Shown: positions 4,034 to 11,310 of the stretch, piece by piece | Layout: every line of letters begins with the position of its first letter | Numbering within the stretch: the first letter of the stretch is position 1 | Assembly (NCBI RefSeq): GCF_055900595.2 | Contig: NZ_CM148325.1 | Strand: one strand, 5' to 3' | DNA: 64,000 bases | Position numbers and translations under genes: made by a program | Notes under the pieces: generated by a model | What the model was told of the DNA's origin: nothing | The model's database searches: none | Seen by the model: the letters and a program-made list of their open reading frames with translations, nothing else

Positions 4034-4497
4034 GTCAGGTGATCCTCGATTTACAACTGGCATGTGAAGATAATTCCGGGTTACCGGAAGAGAGCCAGTT
4101 TCAGACATGGCTGAATGCGGTGATCCCGCAGTTTCAGGAAGAATCGGAAGTGACTATTCGCGTGGTCGATACCGCCGAAAGCCACAGTCTCAATCTGACC
4201 TATCGCGGTAAGGATAAGCCGACCAACGTGCTCTCCTTCCCGTTTGAAGTACCGCCTGGCATGGAGATGTCGCTGCTGGGCGATCTGGTTATCTGCCGTC
4301 AGGTGGTTGAGAAGGAAGCACAGGAGCAAGGCAAACCACTGGAAGCGCACTGGGCGCATATGGTGGTGCACGGCAGTCTGCATTTGTTAGGTTACGATCA
4401 CATCGAAGACGACGAAGCAGAAGAAATGGAAGCCCTCGAAACAGAGATTATGCTTGCTCTGGGCTATGAGGATCCGTACATTGCCGAGAAAGAATAA
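4030..4497 (+). CDS. ybeY: Endoribonuclease YbeY (16S rRNA 3'-end maturation factor)
   Basis: 155 aa; metal-binding motif [11 protein letters not shown]; start overlaps the ybeZ stop (ATGA). Confidence 0.95.
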
Positions 4498-4586
4498 TTT
4501 GCCAGGCATTTGACTGGCAGACGTCCCCGCCGTTGGTGATTAACGACGGCGTTTTGATTAACTAACATGAGAACCCATACGACGCC

Positions 4587-5465
4587 ATGAGCGACGACAA
4601 TTCACACAGTAGTGACACGATAAGCAACAAGAAGGGATTTTTCTCCCTGTTACTCAGCCAACTTTTCCACGGTGAACCGAAAAACCGTGACGAACTGCTG
4701 GCGCTGATCCGTGATTCCGGGCAGAACGACCTTATCGACGAAGATACGCGCGATATGCTCGAAGGGGTGATGGACATCGCAGACCAACGCGTTCGCGACA
4801 TCATGATCCCCCGCTCCCAGATGATTACCCTGAAACGCAACCAGACGCTGGACGAATGCCTTGATGTCATCATCGAGTCCGCCCACTCACGTTTCCCGGT
4901 GATTAGCGAAGACAAAGATCACATTGAAGGGATTCTGATGGCGAAAGACTTGCTGCCGTTTATGCGCAGCGATGCTGAAGCCTTCAGCATGGACAAAGTG
5001 TTACGTCAGGCGGTTGTCGTTCCTGAAAGTAAGCGCGTAGACCGGATGCTGAAAGAGTTTCGCTCTCAGCGTTACCACATGGCGATCGTCATTGACGAAT
5101 TCGGTGGGGTTTCCGGTCTGGTGACCATTGAAGATATCCTGGAGCTGATTGTTGGTGAGATTGAAGACGAGTATGACGAAGAAGATGATATCGACTTCCG
5201 TCAGCTGAGTCGTCATACCTGGACCGTGCGCGCACTGGCTTCCATCGAAGATTTCAACGAAGCCTTCGGCACCCACTTTAGCGATGAAGAAGTCGACACC
5301 ATCGGAGGTCTGGTGATGCAGGCATTTGGGCATCTCCCGGCGCGTGGCGAAACCATCGACATCGACGGTTACCAGTTCAAAGTGGCGATGGCTGACAGTC
5401 GGCGTATTATTCAGGTTCATGTCAAAATCCCGGATGACTCACCCCAGCCAAAGCTGGATGAATAA
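4587..5465 (+). CDS. corC: CBS-domain Mg/Co efflux-associated protein CorC
   Basis: 292 aa; CBS pair plus CorC/HlyC C-terminal domain; synteny ybeZ-ybeY-corC-lnt. Confidence 0.9.
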
Positions 5466-5489: not shown

Positions 5490-7028
5490 ATGGCTTTTGC
5501 CTCATTAATTGAACGCCAGCGCATTCGCCTGCTGCTGGCGTTATTATTCGGTGCCTGCGGAACGCTGGCCTTCTCTCCTTACGACGTCTGGCCTGCGGCG
5601 ATTATTTCGCTGATGGGGCTTCAGGCGCTGACCTTTAACCGCCGTCCACTCCAGTCTGCCGCTATTGGCTTTTGCTGGGGATTTGGCCTGTTTGGCAGCG
5701 GTATTAACTGGGTCTATGTCAGCATCGCGACCTTTGGCGGAATGCCTGGCCCAGTTAACATCTTCCTGGTGGTGCTGCTGGCAGCGTATTTGTCGCTGTA
5801 TACCGGACTGTTTGCTGGCGTGCTGTCGCGTCTGTGGCCGAAAACCACCTGGCTACGCGTGGCGATTGCCGCCCCTGCTCTCTGGCAAGTGACCGAGTTT
5901 CTGCGCGGTTGGGTGCTGACTGGCTTCCCGTGGTTGCAGTTCGGCTATAGCCAGATTGACGGTCCGTTAAAAGGACTGGCACCGATAATGGGCGTGGAAG
6001 CCATTAACTTCCTGCTGATGATGGTAAGCGGCCTGCTGGCACTGGCGTTGGTCAAACGCAACTGGCGTCCGCTGGTGGTGGCCGTCGTGCTGTTTGCCCT
6101 TCCCTTCCCGCTACGTTACATCCAGTGGTTTACCCCGCAACCGGAGAAAACCATTCAGGTATCGATGGTTCAGGGCGACATTCCGCAATCGCTGAAGTGG
6201 GATGAAGGCCAGCTTCTCAATACGCTGAAGATTTACTACAACGCAACGGCACCGCTGATGGGCAAGTCATCGCTGATTATCTGGCCGGAGTCGGCGATAA
6301 CCGACCTGGAAATTAATCAGCAGCCGTTCCTCAAAGCACTGGACGGTGAGTTGCGTGATAAAGGTAGCTCGCTGGTCACCGGGATTGTCGACGCGCGTCT
6401 CAATAAGCAGAACCGCTACGATACCTACAACACCATCATCACGCTGGGTAAAGGTGCACCGTATAGCTACGAATCAGCCGATCGCTATAACAAAAACCAT
6501 CTGGTGCCGTTTGGCGAGTTTGTCCCGCTGGAGTCGATTCTGCGTCCGTTAGCACCGTTCTTTGACCTGCCGATGTCGTCATTCAGCCGTGGACCATATA
6601 TCCAACCACCGCTGTCGGTAAATGGTATTGAGCTTACTGCGGCTATTTGCTACGAGATCATTCTCGGCGAGCAAGTGCGCGATAACTTCCGCCCGGATAC
6701 CGACTATCTGCTGACTATCTCCAACGATGCGTGGTTTGGTAAGTCTATTGGCCCATGGCAGCACTTTCAGATGGCGCGAATGCGTGCGCTGGAGCTGGCG
6801 CGCCCGCTGCTGCGTAGCACCAATAATGGCATCACGGCGGTGATTGGTCCGCAGGGTGAGATTCAGGCGATGATCCCGCAATTCACCCGCGAGGTGTTGA
6901 CCACTAATGTGACGCCGACTACCGGACTCACACCGTACGCACGTACCGGCAACTGGCCGCTGTGGGTGCTGACGGCACTGTTTGGTTTTGCCGCTGTGCT
7001 GATGAGACTGCGAGCACGTCAACGTTAA
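5490..7028 (+). CDS. lnt: Apolipoprotein N-acyltransferase
   Basis: 512 aa; multi-TM N-terminus followed by a carbon-nitrogen hydrolase domain; synteny. Confidence 0.95.
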
Positions 7029-7032
7029 TGTG

Positions 7033-7067
7033 AATGATGCACTGGCCAGCAAAATCGCATCATTTTT
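7033..7067 (+). terminator. Candidate intrinsic terminator after lnt
   Basis: 8-bp perfect stem aatgatgc / gcatcatt with a 16-nt loop, followed by ttt. Confidence 0.4.
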
Positions 7068-7132
7068 GCAGGCCAGATAAACTGTTCACACCACATCCGG
7101 TATCAACAAAACGTACTTTCTCATTGAGCTGT

Positions 7133-7160
7133 GGGGCGTGATTATCATGCCCCTTTTTTT
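7133..7160 (+). terminator. Hairpin plus T7 run abutting the stop of the convergent rhomboid-propeller ORF
   Basis: ggggcgtgat / atcatgcccc imperfect stem followed by ttttttt; the T-run overlaps the TAA stop (reverse strand) of ORF 7159..9096. Confidence 0.45.
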
Positions 7161-9096
7161 ACGGTTCAGGGATACAAGCCACATCGCCATATTGGGGATG
7201 CCGAATAATTGCCTGCGGATCAAGCGAGCGCGTCCTGTCCATTTGGATTAACCCGTTCTTCGCCATAACAAATATCTTTCTACCATCCGCTGAAAAACGA
7301 AGATGATTAACGTAGCTGGCAGGATAAACGCCAATAATCTGCCCGGCATTAATATTGAGCAGGATGACATAACCTTGCAGGCCATATGACACCAACGCTA
7401 AATACTGACCGTCCGGGCTAATACCCTCAACAGAATAAACGCTCCTGCTACACCATTGCGTCATAATGCTGGCTTGTTGATCCCCTGTGCTTATACCTGA
7501 AATCCCCTGACTATCGGCAAAAATAACCTCACCATTTTTTGGTCGGAATCCCATCGCAGAAACGACACCACGCGCATCACCTGCGGGAAAATCTTCTTTC
7601 TGATGCGTGATGGTATTGATCCGCACGATGTTACCTCTGCCTGCTCCCGGAACCAGTAATGTTTTTTCATCCGGGGAAAGTGCCATAACCCAGGCGCCTG
7701 GTTTACCGCTCGTCCCCGTCCCGTCGTATTTCTCCAGTGGGATATCCGCCACATGCTGATAAGTCACCAGATCAATCGCTGACACACTATTACTGGTGCG
7801 ATTCATCACCCAGGCTTTTGTGCCATCACGCGAGAGGATAAGGCTGTCAGGATGGGCGCCGGTGGTAATCGACTGAATAATCTCCCCCGTCGCCACGTTA
7901 ATGACCGATACTGCATTCGCTTCAAATGAAGTCGCATACAGCAACTTTTCATCGGGGCTTAACACCAGCGATCTGACGCCCTGATCTTTACAGCCACCAC
8001 AATGTTTGACTGACTTTTCTTTCGCTATGGGCGCTGTAAAGGTATGCAGGATTTTCTTTTGTCCGAGGTCGAAAACAACAATACTGTTCGTGTTTTCAAT
8101 TGCGGCATAAAACGTATTACCATCCCGACTGATCGCCATATCATGGATATCGGCAATCTCAGCGAGCAAATCACCACTGGCCTGTTCACGACTTACCGGA
8201 GCGGGTAATGTTTCCCTGAGGGCGTTGCGTTCCTCCGCTAACTGCTGCTTTTTATGCCGTCGCTCTTGTTCAATCTCCTGCGGATAAAACTCTTCACGCA
8301 GGCTTTGCCTGACCTGCAAAACTGATTCATCAATCTGCTGCTGCACAAGCCAGATAGCCCCGGTCAGTAGAAGACTACCCGCAACAATAATCCCGCCTTC
8401 CGTAACAAGTCGGTTTTGCCCAGATAAACGCGCACTCAGCCAACCCAACGCGCCCCCCGCAATCAGGCCGCCAATGTGGCAAGCGTTATCTATTCCTGTT
8501 TGCCGGGTACCATACAACAGTGTCAGCGCCACCATACCCAACAGAGAAAATACTCGCCGCTGGTTTTTATGGTGTGTACCCGCACCTGAAGAAAGCTGTG
8601 TTGCTATCGCAGCGCCAGCTATTCCCATAATTGCCCCGGATGCCCCAACGCTGATGACTATCTGCTCACTTTCGCGTAACGCATAACAGGCGCTGATGAG
8701 CCCACCAAAGATGCCGGAGAATAACCAGATAATCAGGAGTCGCCATTTCCCCAGTATCCGTTCCGCCACTGTCCCCACCACCAGGAGTGCAAACATATTC
8801 ATCAGCAAATGGGAAAAACTACTGTGCAGAAAAACACTGCTCAATAAGCGCCAGGGTTCACCCGACAACGTGAGAGAGGCAACGTTAGCGCCGAGATGGA
8901 TGAGTGCGGATTGATCGACTTCTTCATAACTCATCCATTGTGCGAGGTAACAAAATATCCCAACACATAGCGCAAAAAGGATCAGGGTTATTGCGGGTAA
9001 TTGAACATTTAACGGCTTAACCGAAGATGCAGACATAAGGTGATTCTTCCTTGAAAAGACAGGTAAAAAAGCATTTTTCCCGTGTGCAGTTATCAT
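7159..9096 (-). CDS. Rhomboid-family intramembrane serine protease fused to a C-terminal beta-propeller-like domain (YVTN/lactonase-type repeats); uncharacterised
   Basis: 645-aa ORF. Rhomboid signatures seen directly: WRLLSSVFLHSSFSHLLMNM, catalytic-Ser motif GASGAIMG, catalytic-His motif HIGGLIAGG, about 7 hydrophobic segments. C-terminal ~330 aa carry repeated S(P/R)DG...hydrophobic-strand units (SRDGNTFYAA, SPDEKLLYAT, SRDGTKAWVM, SPDEKTLLVP, SPDGQYLALV, SADGRKIFVM). Alternative start at the ATG at 9036 (625 aa) has a better SD (aggaag). Confidence 0.8.
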   Translation of the reverse strand: MITAHGKNAFLPVFSRKNHLMSASSVKPLNVQLPAITLILFALCVGIFCYLAQWMSYEEVDQSALIHLGANVASLTLSGEPWRLLSSVFLHSSFSHLLMNMFALLVVGTVAERILGKWRLLIIWLFSGIFGGLISACYALRESEQIVISVGASGAIMGIAGAAIATQLSSGAGTHHKNQRRVFSLLGMVALTLLYGTRQTGIDNACHIGGLIAGGALGWLSARLSGQNRLVTEGGIIVAGSLLLTGAIWLVQQQIDESVLQVRQSLREEFYPQEIEQERRHKKQQLAEERNALRETLPAPVSREQASGDLLAEIADIHDMAISRDGNTFYAAIENTNSIVVFDLGQKKILHTFTAPIAKEKSVKHCGGCKDQGVRSLVLSPDEKLLYATSFEANAVSVINVATGEIIQSITTGAHPDSLILSRDGTKAWVMNRTSNSVSAIDLVTYQHVADIPLEKYDGTGTSGKPGAWVMALSPDEKTLLVPGAGRGNIVRINTITHQKEDFPAGDARGVVSAMGFRPKNGEVIFADSQGISGISTGDQQASIMTQWCSRSVYSVEGISPDGQYLALVSYGLQGYVILLNINAGQIIGVYPASYVNHLRFSADGRKIFVMAKNGLIQMDRTRSLDPQAIIRHPQYGDVACIPEP

Positions 9097-9390
9097 CCCG
9101 GCAAACGTCCCATACCGAAAAGTTAACTCTGTCCGAAATATGACTTTTTCAGCCTGAAATTACAATCGTAATTAATTCATCCCTAAGTATTTTTTGGCAT
9201 GTAAGTTGCTTTATTTACTGTGTAAGCAATGAAATCAGCCGCAACGCAACCGGGTTGCACCAACACAAATCAGCGGTAGCACCAAAAAGGTGCGGTTTAA
9301 GAATTTTGCTTCGGAATGGTGCGGCGCATCTCGCAAAAACAAACAATAAAACATCAATATCTTTACATTTAGCCAAACTAAATGTTACCT

Positions 9391-9448
9391 AACAAACACA
9401 ACACTGCACAATAAAGTTGCAGATGATAACAACACAAACACTCACAAC
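9391..9448 (+). promoter_or_regulatory. C/A-rich elements in the gltI 5' leader (candidate GcvB sRNA target site)
   Basis: aacaaacacaacactgcacaa (9391..9411) and aacaacacaaacactcacaac (9428..9448), 44-100 nt upstream of the gltI ATG; gltI is a known GcvB target through a C/A-rich leader element in Salmonella/E. coli. Confidence 0.5.
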
Positions 9449-9491
9449 GGGTATCCATGCGTTCTTAACGCAGAAGATAAAGGAGTTGGAT

Positions 9492-10400
9492 ATGCAATTA
9501 CGTAAACCTGCCACAGCAATCCTGGCCCTGGCGCTTTCCGCAGGACTGGCACAGGCAGATGACGCCGCCCCGGCAGCGGGCAGTACGCTGGACAAAATCG
9601 CCAAAAACGGTGTGATTGTCGTCGGTCACCGTGAATCTTCAGTACCTTTCTCTTATTACGACAATCAGCAAAAAGTGGTGGGTTACTCGCAGGATTACTC
9701 CAACGCCATTGTTGAAGCAGTGAAAAAGAAACTCAACAAACCGGACTTGCAGGTGAAACTGATTCCGATCACCTCACAAAACCGTATTCCTCTGCTGCAA
9801 AACGGCACTTTCGATTTTGAATGTGGTTCTACCACCAACAACGTCGAACGCCAAAAACAGGCGGCTTTCTCTGACACTATTTTCGTGGTCGGTACGCGCC
9901 TGCTGACCAAAAAGGGCGGCGATATCAAAGATTTTGCCGACCTGAAAGGCAAAGCCGTAGTCGTTACTTCCGGCACTACCTCTGAAGTTTTGCTCAACAA
10001 ACTGAATGAAGAGCAAAAAATGAATATGCGCATCATCAGCGCCAAAGATCACGGTGACTCTTTCCGCACCCTGGAAAGCGGTCGTGCCGTTGCCTTTATG
10101 ATGGATGACGCTCTGTTAGCCGGTGAGCGAGCGAAAGCGAAGAAACCAGACAACTGGGAAATCGTCGGCAAGCCGCAGTCTCAGGAAGCCTACGGTTGCA
10201 TGTTGCGTAAAGACGATCCGCAGTTCAAAAAGCTGATGGATGACACTATCGCTCAGGTGCAGACCTCCGGTGAAGCGGAAAAATGGTTTGATAAGTGGTT
10301 CAAAAATCCAATTCCGCCGAAAAACCTGAACATGAATTTCGAACTGTCGGACGAAATGAAAGCACTGTTCAAAGAACCGAATGACAAGGCACTGAACTAA
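9492..10400 (+). CDS. gltI: Glutamate/aspartate ABC transporter periplasmic binding protein
   Basis: 302 aa from the ATG at 9492 (SD aggag at 9481..9485); signal peptide MQLRKPATAILALALSAGLAQA; the ORF-track start at 9417 is an upstream in-frame extension. Confidence 0.9.
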   Translation: MQLRKPATAILALALSAGLAQADDAAPAAGSTLDKIAKNGVIVVGHRESSVPFSYYDNQQKVVGYSQDYSNAIVEAVKKKLNKPDLQVKLIPITSQNRIPLLQNGTFDFECGSTTNNVERQKQAAFSDTIFVVGTRLLTKKGGDIKDFADLKGKAVVVTSGTTSEVLLNKLNEEQKMNMRIISAKDHGDSFRTLESGRAVAFMMDDALLAGERAKAKKPDNWEIVGKPQSQEAYGCMLRKDDPQFKKLMDDTIAQVQTSGEAEKWFDKWFKNPIPPKNLNMNFELSDEMKALFKEPNDKALN

Positions 10401-10556
10401 TTACAAGAACCAGGGGCGGAAATTCCAGCCCTCTCGATTGTTACGTAGCACGGACAGACTATACGCCTGATGGTCGTTCCCCATCGGGCCTGAAAACCGC
10501 AATACGCTGGGTAACAATCTTCGAGGGTAGCAGTTAACGCTGCTACCCTCTTTTTT
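10401..10556 (+). ncRNA. sroC: SroC-like sRNA processed from the gltI-gltJ intergenic region
   Basis: Intergenic segment immediately 3' of gltI ending in a strong Rho-independent terminator (gagggtagcagttaacgctgctaccctc + tttttt at 10523..10556); position matches the known origin of SroC in the gltIJKL mRNA. The 5' end is not determinable from sequence. Confidence 0.5.
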
Positions 10557-10569
10557 CTGGAGTAGATTT

Positions 10570-11310
10570 ATGTCTATAGACTGGAACTGGGGTATTTTTT
10601 TACAACAAGCCCCGTTCGGCAACACCACCTATCTTGGTTGGATCTGGAGTGGTTTTCAGGTGACGATCGCTTTGTCGATCTGCGCCTGGATTATCGCTTT
10701 CCTTGTCGGTTCATTTTTCGGCATTTTACGTACCGTTCCAAACCGTTTTCTCTCCGGTCTGGGTACGTTGTATGTCGAACTGTTCCGCAACGTGCCGTTG
10801 ATTGTGCAATTCTTTACCTGGTATCTGGTTATCCCTGAACTGTTGCCGGAAAAAATCGGCATGTGGTTTAAGGCAGAACTAGACCCAAATATTCAGTTTT
10901 TCCTCTCCTCCATGCTCTGTCTGGGACTGTTTACTGCAGCTCGTGTTTGCGAACAAGTACGCGCCGCGATTCAGTCGTTGCCGCGTGGGCAAAAGAATGC
11001 CGCGCTGGCAATGGGTCTGACGCTACCGCAGGCTTACCGCTACGTACTGTTGCCTAACGCTTATCGCGTTATCGTCCCGCCAATGACCTCTGAGATGATG
11101 AACCTGGTAAAAAACTCCGCCATCGCCTCGACCATCGGTCTGGTGGATATGGCGGCGCAGGCCGGTAAATTGCTCGATTACTCGGCCCACGCCTGGGAGT
11201 CATTTACCGCCATTACGCTGGCGTATGTGTTGATTAACGCTTTTATCATGCTGGTGATGACGCTGGTTGAACGTAAAGTTCGCCTGCCCGGCAACATGGG
11301 GGGCAAATAA
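10570..11310 (+). CDS. gltJ: Glutamate/aspartate ABC transporter permease
   Basis: 246 aa polytopic membrane protein; synteny gltIJKL. Confidence 0.9.

Follow-up and report, generated by a model that had tools for sequence, protein, structure and literature searches.

An Escherichia coli orthologue of the Shigella sonnei rhomboid protease Rhom7, with a predicted periplasmic seven-bladed propeller, at a strain-variable site between lnt and gltI

The window analysed here was a stretch of 64,000 nucleotides of contig NZ_CM148325.1 (NCBI RefSeq assembly GCF_055900595.2), in which a single gene lies between lnt and gltI. Its longest open reading frame, of 645 aa (7159..9096, minus strand), was present as described in an initial annotation made from the DNA sequence, together with all the motifs quoted there; the start was corrected. 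The real start was assigned to Met21 of this frame (position 9036), because the upstream extension is open only in the present strain and because RefSeq entry WP_032302679.1 agrees. Five other alleles have this upstream ATG either in a different frame or ahead of a stop codon (T5 versus T6 run). The coding sequence, rhom7, thus spans 7159..9036 on the minus strand (625 aa plus stop), and residue numbers follow the 625-aa protein unless given for the 645-aa ORF. The 20-codon extension (9037..9096, minus strand), the coding of which is not conserved, holds a Shine-Dalgarno sequence (AAGGAAG, 9046-9052) and is probably 5' UTR. In the region upstream of rhom7 (9037-9491), no FNR or CRP site with two or fewer mismatches and no Fur-like site with three or fewer was found, and the best sigma-70 match on the rhom7 strand was at most 8/12. 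Beyond the other end of the gene, a consensus scan indicated a terminator-like site after lnt, a GC-rich hairpin followed by T7 (7133..7153, plus strand), with the stop codon of rhom7 6 bp away.

The N-terminal part of the protein (TM1-TM6, aa 1-205; 8422..9036, minus strand) was recognised as a rhomboid core by profile match, motifs, the AF2 model and a PDB match. Pfam Rhomboid (PF01694) matched residues 79-221 of the 645-aa ORF with 102 bits (E=3.8e-29) over model positions 2-140 of 143, and the GlpG homologue 2nr9 was matched in the PDB with E=3e-10. The motifs present were W62-R63, H71/H76/N80, GASGA with Ser133 (codon 8638-8640, minus strand) and HIGG with His187 (codon 8476-8478, minus strand). 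S133, H187, H71, H76 and D183 were invariant in 51 homologues, with W62 found in 46, R63 in 50 and N80 likewise in 50. In the AF2 model, Ser133 begins helix 132-149 (TM4) and His187 lies inside helix 184-203 (TM6), which places both catalytic residues in TM helices, as the initial annotation would have it. On profile and catalytic motifs, assignment to the rhomboid intramembrane serine proteases (MEROPS S54/PF01694) was confirmed. The GlpG equivalog models TIGR04239 and NF008155 scored below cutoff (44.2 bits versus 250 and 39.1 versus 335, respectively), as did the rhombosortase model TIGR03902 (44.7 bits versus 84).

The AF2 model of the whole protein (pLDDT 89.9, pTM 0.77) showed seven TM-length helices, a helical linker of about 50 residues and seven blades. 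The seventh TM helix (aa 209-232; 8341..8412, minus strand) is predicted to carry the C-terminal part across the membrane, and is followed by the charged linker (aa 237-288; 8173..8328, minus strand). The remainder (aa 289-625; 7162..8172, minus strand) was identified from profiles, the model and a fold match as a seven-bladed YVTN-type beta-propeller. Between residues 289 and 600 the model contained 27-28 strands grouped in fours. The YVTN repeat model TIGR02276 matched in two stretches with 60.2 bits (cutoff 27.85; E=1.4e-16), and the best fold match in the PDB was 1l0q, a YVTN propeller (E=8.5e-17), the remaining matches being seven-bladed WD40 folds. The architecture proposed at the outset, a rhomboid core with a seventh TM helix and a periplasmic propeller, is therefore also that of the predicted structure. 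The periplasmic location, which follows from the odd number of TM helices, is supported as a prediction, and the conserved Cys pairs of the propeller fit an oxidising compartment of this kind. These pairs, C346/C349 (7990-8001, minus strand) and C529/C621, are conserved in 94% and 86% of homologues, respectively. The CGGC motif pointed out earlier is present at the first pair, but proved to be the short form of a family Cys pair with variable, mostly C-x4-C, spacing. On account of this spacing a thioredoxin-like redox or metal motif was rejected, and the pair is more likely a small structural disulfide loop.

Two annotations could be taken to mean that the C-terminal domain is itself an enzyme, either lactonase-like or associated with a PQQ pathway, in which case periplasmic catalysis would be coupled to the membrane and the rhomboid part would be secondary. 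One is a weak Pfam Lactonase match (E=3.7e-4) and the other comes from the nearest stand-alone relatives of the propeller, at 24-34% identity, which are annotated 'PQQ-dependent catabolism-associated beta-propeller protein'. However, the PQQ-associated propeller model TIGR03866 reached 53.2 bits against a cutoff of 287 and the YncE equivalog NF052280 reached 35.3 against 400, both far too low, and names of this type reflect fold and genomic association with no demonstrated activity. Neither PQQ nor dehydrogenase genes were found near the gene in E. coli, Budvicia or Trinickia, and the catalytic residues of the rhomboid part do not vary within the family, which argues that the protease is not vestigial. 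An enzymatic C-terminal domain is accordingly rated as highly improbable. The YVTN/YncE-type propellers (1l0q; E. coli YncE) belong to the same repeat family, TIGR02276, and have the same seven-bladed fold; they are soluble or surface proteins, whereas the propeller described here is joined to an intramembrane protease and contains two Cys pairs that mark the fusion family.

The initial annotation took the protein to be uncharacterised. This did not stand, as the gene corresponds in sequence and locus to that for S. sonnei Rhom7 (SSON_0610, UniProt Q3Z4D6), of which it is the orthologue in E. coli. A protein named for S. sonnei (P0018) shared 585/625 residues (94%) over its full length, and its contig showed the order gltLKJI, the gene, lnt, corC, ybeY, ybeZ, which is also that of the window and of RefSeq NZ_CP098223. 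The machine-read Rhom7 sequence of Fig EV1 in Liu et al. 2020 (PMC7232013) matched at 566 of 610 aligned residues (~93%), and both the length of 625 aa and the Ser133/His187 numbering are identical in the two proteins. They also have the same seven predicted TM helices, C-terminal domain and lnt-gltI locus, and differ by about 40 amino-acid substitutions; the activity is known from the Shigella enzyme.

For that enzyme, activity, catalytic residues and candidate substrates have been tested. Cleavage of a TM substrate by S. sonnei Rhom7 requires Ser133 and His187, the S133A and H187A variants being inactive (Liu et al., EMBO J 2020, PMC7232013). Plasmid-expressed Rhom7 cut HybA (hydrogenase-2) and FdnH (formate dehydrogenase-N) in their single TM anchors, with FdnH cleaved in cells without its membrane partner FdnI; the dependence of HybA cleavage on the orphan state was demonstrated with GlpG (PMC7232013). 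A helix-breaking Pro in the substrate TM was required, and the authors interpret the cleavage as a quality-control step by which further degradation is licensed (PMC7232013). Full-length HybA and FdnH were cleaved only by the plasmid-expressed enzyme, no cleavage being reported for the natively expressed one, and a Shigella double mutant had no growth or stress phenotype (PMC7232013). Seven TMDs were predicted with Phobius, and removal of the C-terminal domain left cleavage of an artificial substrate unchanged (PMC7232013). The word 'propeller' occurs 0 times in that paper (PMC7232013), later papers citing Rhom7 do so for substrates only, and a search of the available literature for the rhomboid-propeller fusion returned nothing relevant.

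Among known rhomboids, E. coli GlpG, the prototype of the family, shares with Rhom7 the Ser at the start of TM4, the His in TM6, the WR loop, the H-x4-H-x3-N segment and HybA as a substrate, although the sequence similarity is only distant. GlpG, which belongs to the E. coli core, has six TM helices and an N-terminal cytoplasmic domain; Rhom7, which is variable, has no such N-terminal domain but possesses TM7 and a periplasmic propeller. Bacillus subtilis YqgP/GluP, which cuts MgtE and serves as an adaptor for FtsH, is like Rhom7 a quality-control rhomboid with a seventh TM helix and an extracytoplasmic repeat domain; Rhom7 has no known link to FtsH. Unlike the propeller of Rhom7, the C-terminal domain of YqgP is TPR-like, and the regulatory N-terminal cytosolic domain of YqgP is missing in Rhom7. 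The 6+1 TM topology is common to Rhom7 and Providencia stuartii AarA, which matures TatA, but AarA, of 281 aa, stops soon after TM7 and lacks a propeller. The two are ~30% identical, and the TM segment of P. stuartii TatA is cut by Rhom7 (PMC7232013).

Taken as a whole, the gene is very probably best explained as the E. coli orthologue of Rhom7, a '6+1 TM' intramembrane protease active in Shigella, carrying a putative periplasmic propeller platform. In the mechanism proposed, TM7 and the helical linker of about 50 residues would carry the seven-bladed YVTN propeller so that it forms a periplasmic protein-binding platform beside the periplasm-facing active site. The propeller would not be part of the catalytic machinery; it may assist in choosing or retaining orphan substrates by their folded periplasmic domains or, alternatively, may recruit a partner protease. 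The choice of substrate by rhomboids is a standing question, and few bacterial rhomboids besides Rhom7 have candidate natural substrates.

The same long helical linker, which in the AF2 model tethers the propeller beside the active site, would also suit an autoinhibitory lid or ligand sensor that keeps the active site blocked as long as neither a periplasmic ligand nor a substrate domain is bound to the propeller. B. subtilis YqgP, which is reportedly regulated via an extramembrane domain, offers an analogy, and the lack of detectable HybA/FdnH cleavage by native Rhom7, versus the activity of the over-expressed enzyme, could reflect a mostly 'off' state. However, no ligand-binding motif was identified, and the positions conserved in the propeller appear to be structural (Gly/Pro, the Cys pairs, and Asp/Asn where strands end). 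Full-length Rhom7 is moreover active on the artificial substrate, with no gain of activity reported after deletion of the C-terminal domain (PMC7232013). The unchanged cleavage without this domain, seen with an artificial substrate only, argues against strict gating, and a lid or sensor is considered unlikely.

A more specific version of the platform proposal would make the propeller a dedicated recognition module that reads exposed surfaces of the partner-less, folded, Tat-exported Fe-S subunits HybA and FdnH, with a slip in the A7/A8 run of the linker uncoupling the protease from the propeller. This version is put forward as a speculation that is rather doubtful. If true, it would provide a bacterial rhomboid with an extramembrane substrate-selection domain, and E. 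coli strains with an intact gene, without the C-terminal domain or without the gene would be natural experiments on rhomboid substrate choice. At the linker site itself (8248-8256), most alleles have an A7/A8 run, which is interrupted in the present strain (CATAAAAAG). In the recognition-module reading, the single-base slip would already be fixed in the E. coli HS-like allele.

Across Proteobacteria, at least 50 clusters formed at 50% identity contain the same rhomboid-propeller fusion, and AFDB50 has it in Cedecea, Paraburkholderia and Phytopseudomonas. A cluster look-up assigned the homologue P0040 to Klebsiella aerogenes. Some homologues have been auto-named 'rhomboid protease GluP'. A scan of genome contigs with protease-motif patterns yielded mostly generic rhomboids and recovered about five full-length fusions. 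No flanking gene is common to any two of the loci in Budvicia aquatica (L005; neighbours TetR, LicT and a PTS system), Trinickia (L031; neighbours LysR regulators and TrhA) and E. coli. The gene thus stands alone, so that there is no operon clue to a pathway.

The site between lnt and gltI was said to be strain-variable and to concern a single gene, and the genome counts agree. The gene was present in 3231/5426 complete E. coli genomes (~60%) and absent from ~40%; 2186/5426 carried a gene-less allele of 167 bp, including K-12, which the initial annotation had correctly given as lacking the gene, and O157:H7. The segment separating the two alleles is 2234 bp long (7013..9246) and is replaced by an unrelated 167 bp in K-12, ML35 and O157:H7; its left edge falls in the last codons of lnt. 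The locus is supported as a single-gene presence/absence polymorphism between core genes. Neither direct repeats nor mobile-element ends were found at the junctions of the gene-bearing and gene-less alleles. A Klebsiella-like relative of 54% identity occupies the identical lnt-gltI position, and because of this shared location the absence of rhom7 in E. coli is probably loss. An old resident that was later lost is also favoured because dS is similar to that of the flanking genes lnt, gltI and gltJ. A recent mobile insertion was considered and rejected on the same grounds and for want of insertion scars.

Selection was compared in five full-length alleles, with the frame intact in all and dS up to 0.2. 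In both the rhomboid and the propeller domain dN/dS was 0.16-0.29, which indicates by computation that purifying selection acts on each of them. Inactive forms also occur: a frameshifted rhom7 was found as one exact haplotype in at least 67 genomes, strain HS among them, the gene is disrupted by IS1 in at least one genome, and natural alleles without the C-terminal domain exist. The gene has long resided between lnt and gltI but has been repeatedly lost or inactivated, and is therefore dispensable under many conditions. These losses and broken alleles, the missing phenotype of the Shigella mutant and a dN/dS several-fold higher than that of the neighbouring core genes could together be read as signs of a decaying, functionless remnant heading for loss in all lineages. 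However, dN/dS is near 0.2, not near 1, the Shigella enzyme is catalytically active (PMC7232013) and the fusion is retained in many distant Proteobacteria; a remnant is thus quite unlikely.

To the published account of Rhom7 the present analysis adds that its C-terminal domain is predicted to be a seven-bladed YVTN propeller with conserved Cys pairs, that the fusion is widespread in Proteobacteria and that rhom7 in E. coli is a polymorphism of long standing, dispensable although maintained by selection, and that natural alleles lacking this domain occur; the identity of the gene is unchanged by these additions. K-12, the standard model strain, is without this second rhomboid, so rhomboid work in K-12 misses a locus carried by ~60% of complete genomes. 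The initial annotation had suggested that K-12 carries IS5 in place of the gene. In fact, this IS5 lies within the short gene-less spacer, ~145 bp from the junction, and is absent from most gene-less strains; judging from these alleles, it was inserted upstream of gltI in an independent event within the K-12 lineage.

The longest open reading frame of rhom7, the minus-strand gene between lnt and gltI, was the 645-aa ORF described in the initial annotation (window 7159..9096). For identical DNA in strain Z0117EC0005, RefSeq gives a 625-aa product beginning at the second Met (window 7159..9036), flanked by lnt and gltI and named 'rhomboid family intramembrane serine protease' (WP_032302679.1). 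The 20-codon N-terminal extension (window 9037-9096, minus strand) was open in this strain only. In five other alleles, which have a T5 run at this position rather than the T6 found here, the upstream ATG either lay in another frame or had a stop after it. Since a Shine-Dalgarno sequence, AAGGAAG, was also present 9 nt 5' of Met21, Met21 is the correct start, giving 625 aa. The original observation was otherwise confirmed, with small corrections of this kind. In the 625-aa numbering, the rhomboid motifs are W62-R63, H71/H76/N80, GASGA with Ser133 and HIGG with His187, and the Cys motif is C346-G-G-C349.

A search of the literature for another rhomboid in enterobacteria surfaced Liu et al. (EMBO J 2020; PMC7232013). 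They reported that SSON_0610 of Shigella sonnei is a rhomboid, predicted to have seven TMDs and using Ser133 and His187 as its catalytic residues, and gave it the name Rhom7. The Rhom7 sequence in Fig EV1 of that paper (625 aa, machine-read copy) aligned end-to-end with the window protein, 566 of the 610 aligned residues being identical. A database protein named for S. sonnei was 94% identical to the window protein and had substitutions in common with the Fig EV1 sequence; its gene order (gltLKJI, the gene, lnt-corC-ybeY-ybeZ) matched that of the window. In a 2025 review, Rhom7 appears under UniProt Q3Z4D6, with FdnH, HybA and HybO as substrates. The product of the window gene is Rhom7, a known protein, here carried by an E. 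coli strain, and to call it uncharacterised was wrong, since its orthologue at the same locus has been studied experimentally (PMC7232013).

The proposed architecture of a rhomboid followed by a propeller was borne out by profile and structure analyses. The rhomboid part matched Pfam Rhomboid (PF01694, E=3.8e-29), and the N-terminal 260 aa matched GlpG structures (2nr9, E=3e-10). The C-terminal half gave weaker Pfam matches to several seven-bladed propeller families and scored 60.2 bits against the NCBIfam YVTN repeat model TIGR02276, exceeding the cutoff of 27.85. Scores against the NCBIfam equivalogs of GlpG, rhombosortase, YncE and the PQQ-associated propeller were all far below the respective cutoffs. 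An AlphaFold2 model built with 51 full-length homologues (pTM 0.77, mean pLDDT 89.9) exhibited seven helices of TM length (residues 15-32, 74-95, 97-121, 132-149, 152-178, 184-203 and 209-232), with Ser133 at the beginning of helix 4 and His187 within helix 6, placing both catalytic residues inside predicted TM helices. A helical linker (237-276) was followed at residues 289-600 by 27-28 strands, which grouped by four into seven blades. The top PDB match by Foldseek was 1l0q, an archaeal YVTN propeller (E=8.5e-17), followed by seven-bladed WD40 domains. The word propeller does not occur in PMC7232013, and the literature search found no other paper using it for this domain. The propeller identity of the C-terminal domain, undescribed before, and its putative role are where part of the remaining interest lies.

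When 1.84 billion cluster representatives were scanned in full with HMMER, at least 50 clusters (50% identity) proved to contain proteins of 610-690 aa that aligned with the query from TM helix 1 through the last blade at 28-36% identity. The members, which had generic names throughout, included Klebsiella sp. and K. aerogenes; Budvicia aquatica and Cedecea neteri; Janthinobacterium and other Oxalobacteraceae; Burkholderia, Paraburkholderia and Trinickia; and Pseudomonas and Phytopseudomonas. The fusion is thus widespread in Proteobacteria and no oddity of E. coli. Across the 51 aligned sequences the protease residues showed no variation, C346 and C349 were kept in 48 sequences, and C529 and C621 in 44. 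The first pair mostly had C-x4-C spacing, within a 'GC-x4-C-xGxGA' loop, which makes the CGGC of E. coli a shorter form of it. The conserved cysteines and the odd TM count fit a C-terminal domain that would be periplasmic and disulfide-stabilised.

For the Shigella enzyme (PMC7232013), a TatA-TM reporter was cut by Rhom7, and cutting was abolished by S133A or H187A. Plasmid-encoded Rhom7 also cut full-length HybA, and FdnH in cells lacking FdnI (orphan FdnH), while the substrate mutants P300A and P259A were resistant. Cleavage of HybA and FdnH was reported for the plasmid-expressed enzyme, and none for the chromosomally expressed one. Assays of growth, Biolog, oxidative stress and T3SS revealed no phenotype of the double mutant. 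Catalysis by the window protein would, as shown for its orthologue, be a Ser/His-dependent cut within TM segments bearing a helix-breaking residue. TM7 would carry the C-terminal part across the membrane, leaving linker and propeller in the periplasm, the side to which the active sites of rhomboids open. The most economical role for a non-catalytic seven-bladed propeller is that of a docking surface, for folded periplasmic substrate domains or for a partner. It is possible that the propeller instead gates the protease, as first proposed; however, cleavage of the artificial TatA-TM reporter was unchanged on deleting the C-terminal domain, or TM7 together with it (PMC7232013), and so lends gating no support. 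That the propeller is itself an enzyme is unlikely, given the sub-threshold profile scores, the lack of pathway context and the invariant protease residues.

The suggested strain variability of the locus was evident among 5426 complete E. coli genomes: at least 80% of the stretch 7029-9491 was present in 3231, and the gene-less junction, as in ML35 and K-12, in 2186, O157:H7 included. Together the two states accounted for 5417 genomes. The alleles differ by a replacement, window 7013-9246 (2234 bp) versus an unrelated 167 bp, with no repeats at its edges. The final lnt codons vary with the allele at this edge, so that the polymorphism boundary falls within them; Lnt (window 7004-7028, plus strand) ends in ...RLRARQR here, ...SLRARKR in other gene-bearing strains and ...SLRQRRK in gene-less ones. 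By megablast, the first 66-79 bp after lnt (window 7029-7107) were unmatched in most other gene-bearing genomes, and the lnt-rhom7 spacer, 130 bp long in this strain, measured 77 or 126 bp in others. K-12 was initially described as carrying an IS5 in place of the gene. It does lack the gene and has an IS5 nearby (4146-5345 of the K-12 locus, L002), but this lies ~145 bp to the right of the gene-less junction and ~100 bp before gltI, within its upstream region (equivalent to window ~9392), and most gene-less strains have no IS5 there. The IS5 insertion and the rhom7 deletion are independent events; the former may alter how the gltI promoter is organised in K-12.

Among five intact alleles, which showed signs of intragenic recombination, dS was 0.07-0.20, like that of lnt, gltI and gltJ, and dN/dS was 0.16-0.29, the membrane and propeller halves being alike. 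A Klebsiella-like orthologue with 54% identity occupied the same position, and its flanking proteins shared 83-95% identity with their E. coli counterparts. Given this synteny and a dS like that of the flanks, rhom7 is an old, fast-evolving resident, and loss is the simplest explanation where it is absent. A dN/dS of about 0.2, like the activity of the Shigella enzyme, contradicts the idea of a functionless relic in E. coli.

Inactivated copies were also found. In NCCP12480 (L087 3952-4649) rhom7 is split by an IS1 into two annotated pseudogene fragments, a second, independent inactivation route. In most alleles the linker codons (window 8248-8256, minus strand; L091 about 2910-2920; L093, E. 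coli HS) contain a run of A7 or A8, which a T interrupts in the window strain (CATAAAAAG), where the gene is intact. A one-base deletion to A6 divides the gene into two ORFs, one of 265 aa for the rhomboid and one of 336 aa for the propeller. At least 67 complete genomes had this exact frameshift haplotype; HS is one of them, and PGAP flags its copy as 'frameshifted'. The frequent losses show that rhom7 is dispensable, and the natural alleles (intact, C-terminal-domain-less and absent) are of remaining interest.

Elsewhere in the region, gltJ (10570-11310) and lnt (5490-7028) reached dS values of 0.30 and 0.18, respectively, against five other E. coli, compared with at most 0.084 for corC; this unusual synonymous divergence points either to a region made mosaic by recombination or to a divergent lineage. 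The gltI-gltJ spacer contained a full-length match to the sRNA sroC (window 10396-10558, plus strand; Rfam RF00369, 174.8 bits), an expected core feature.
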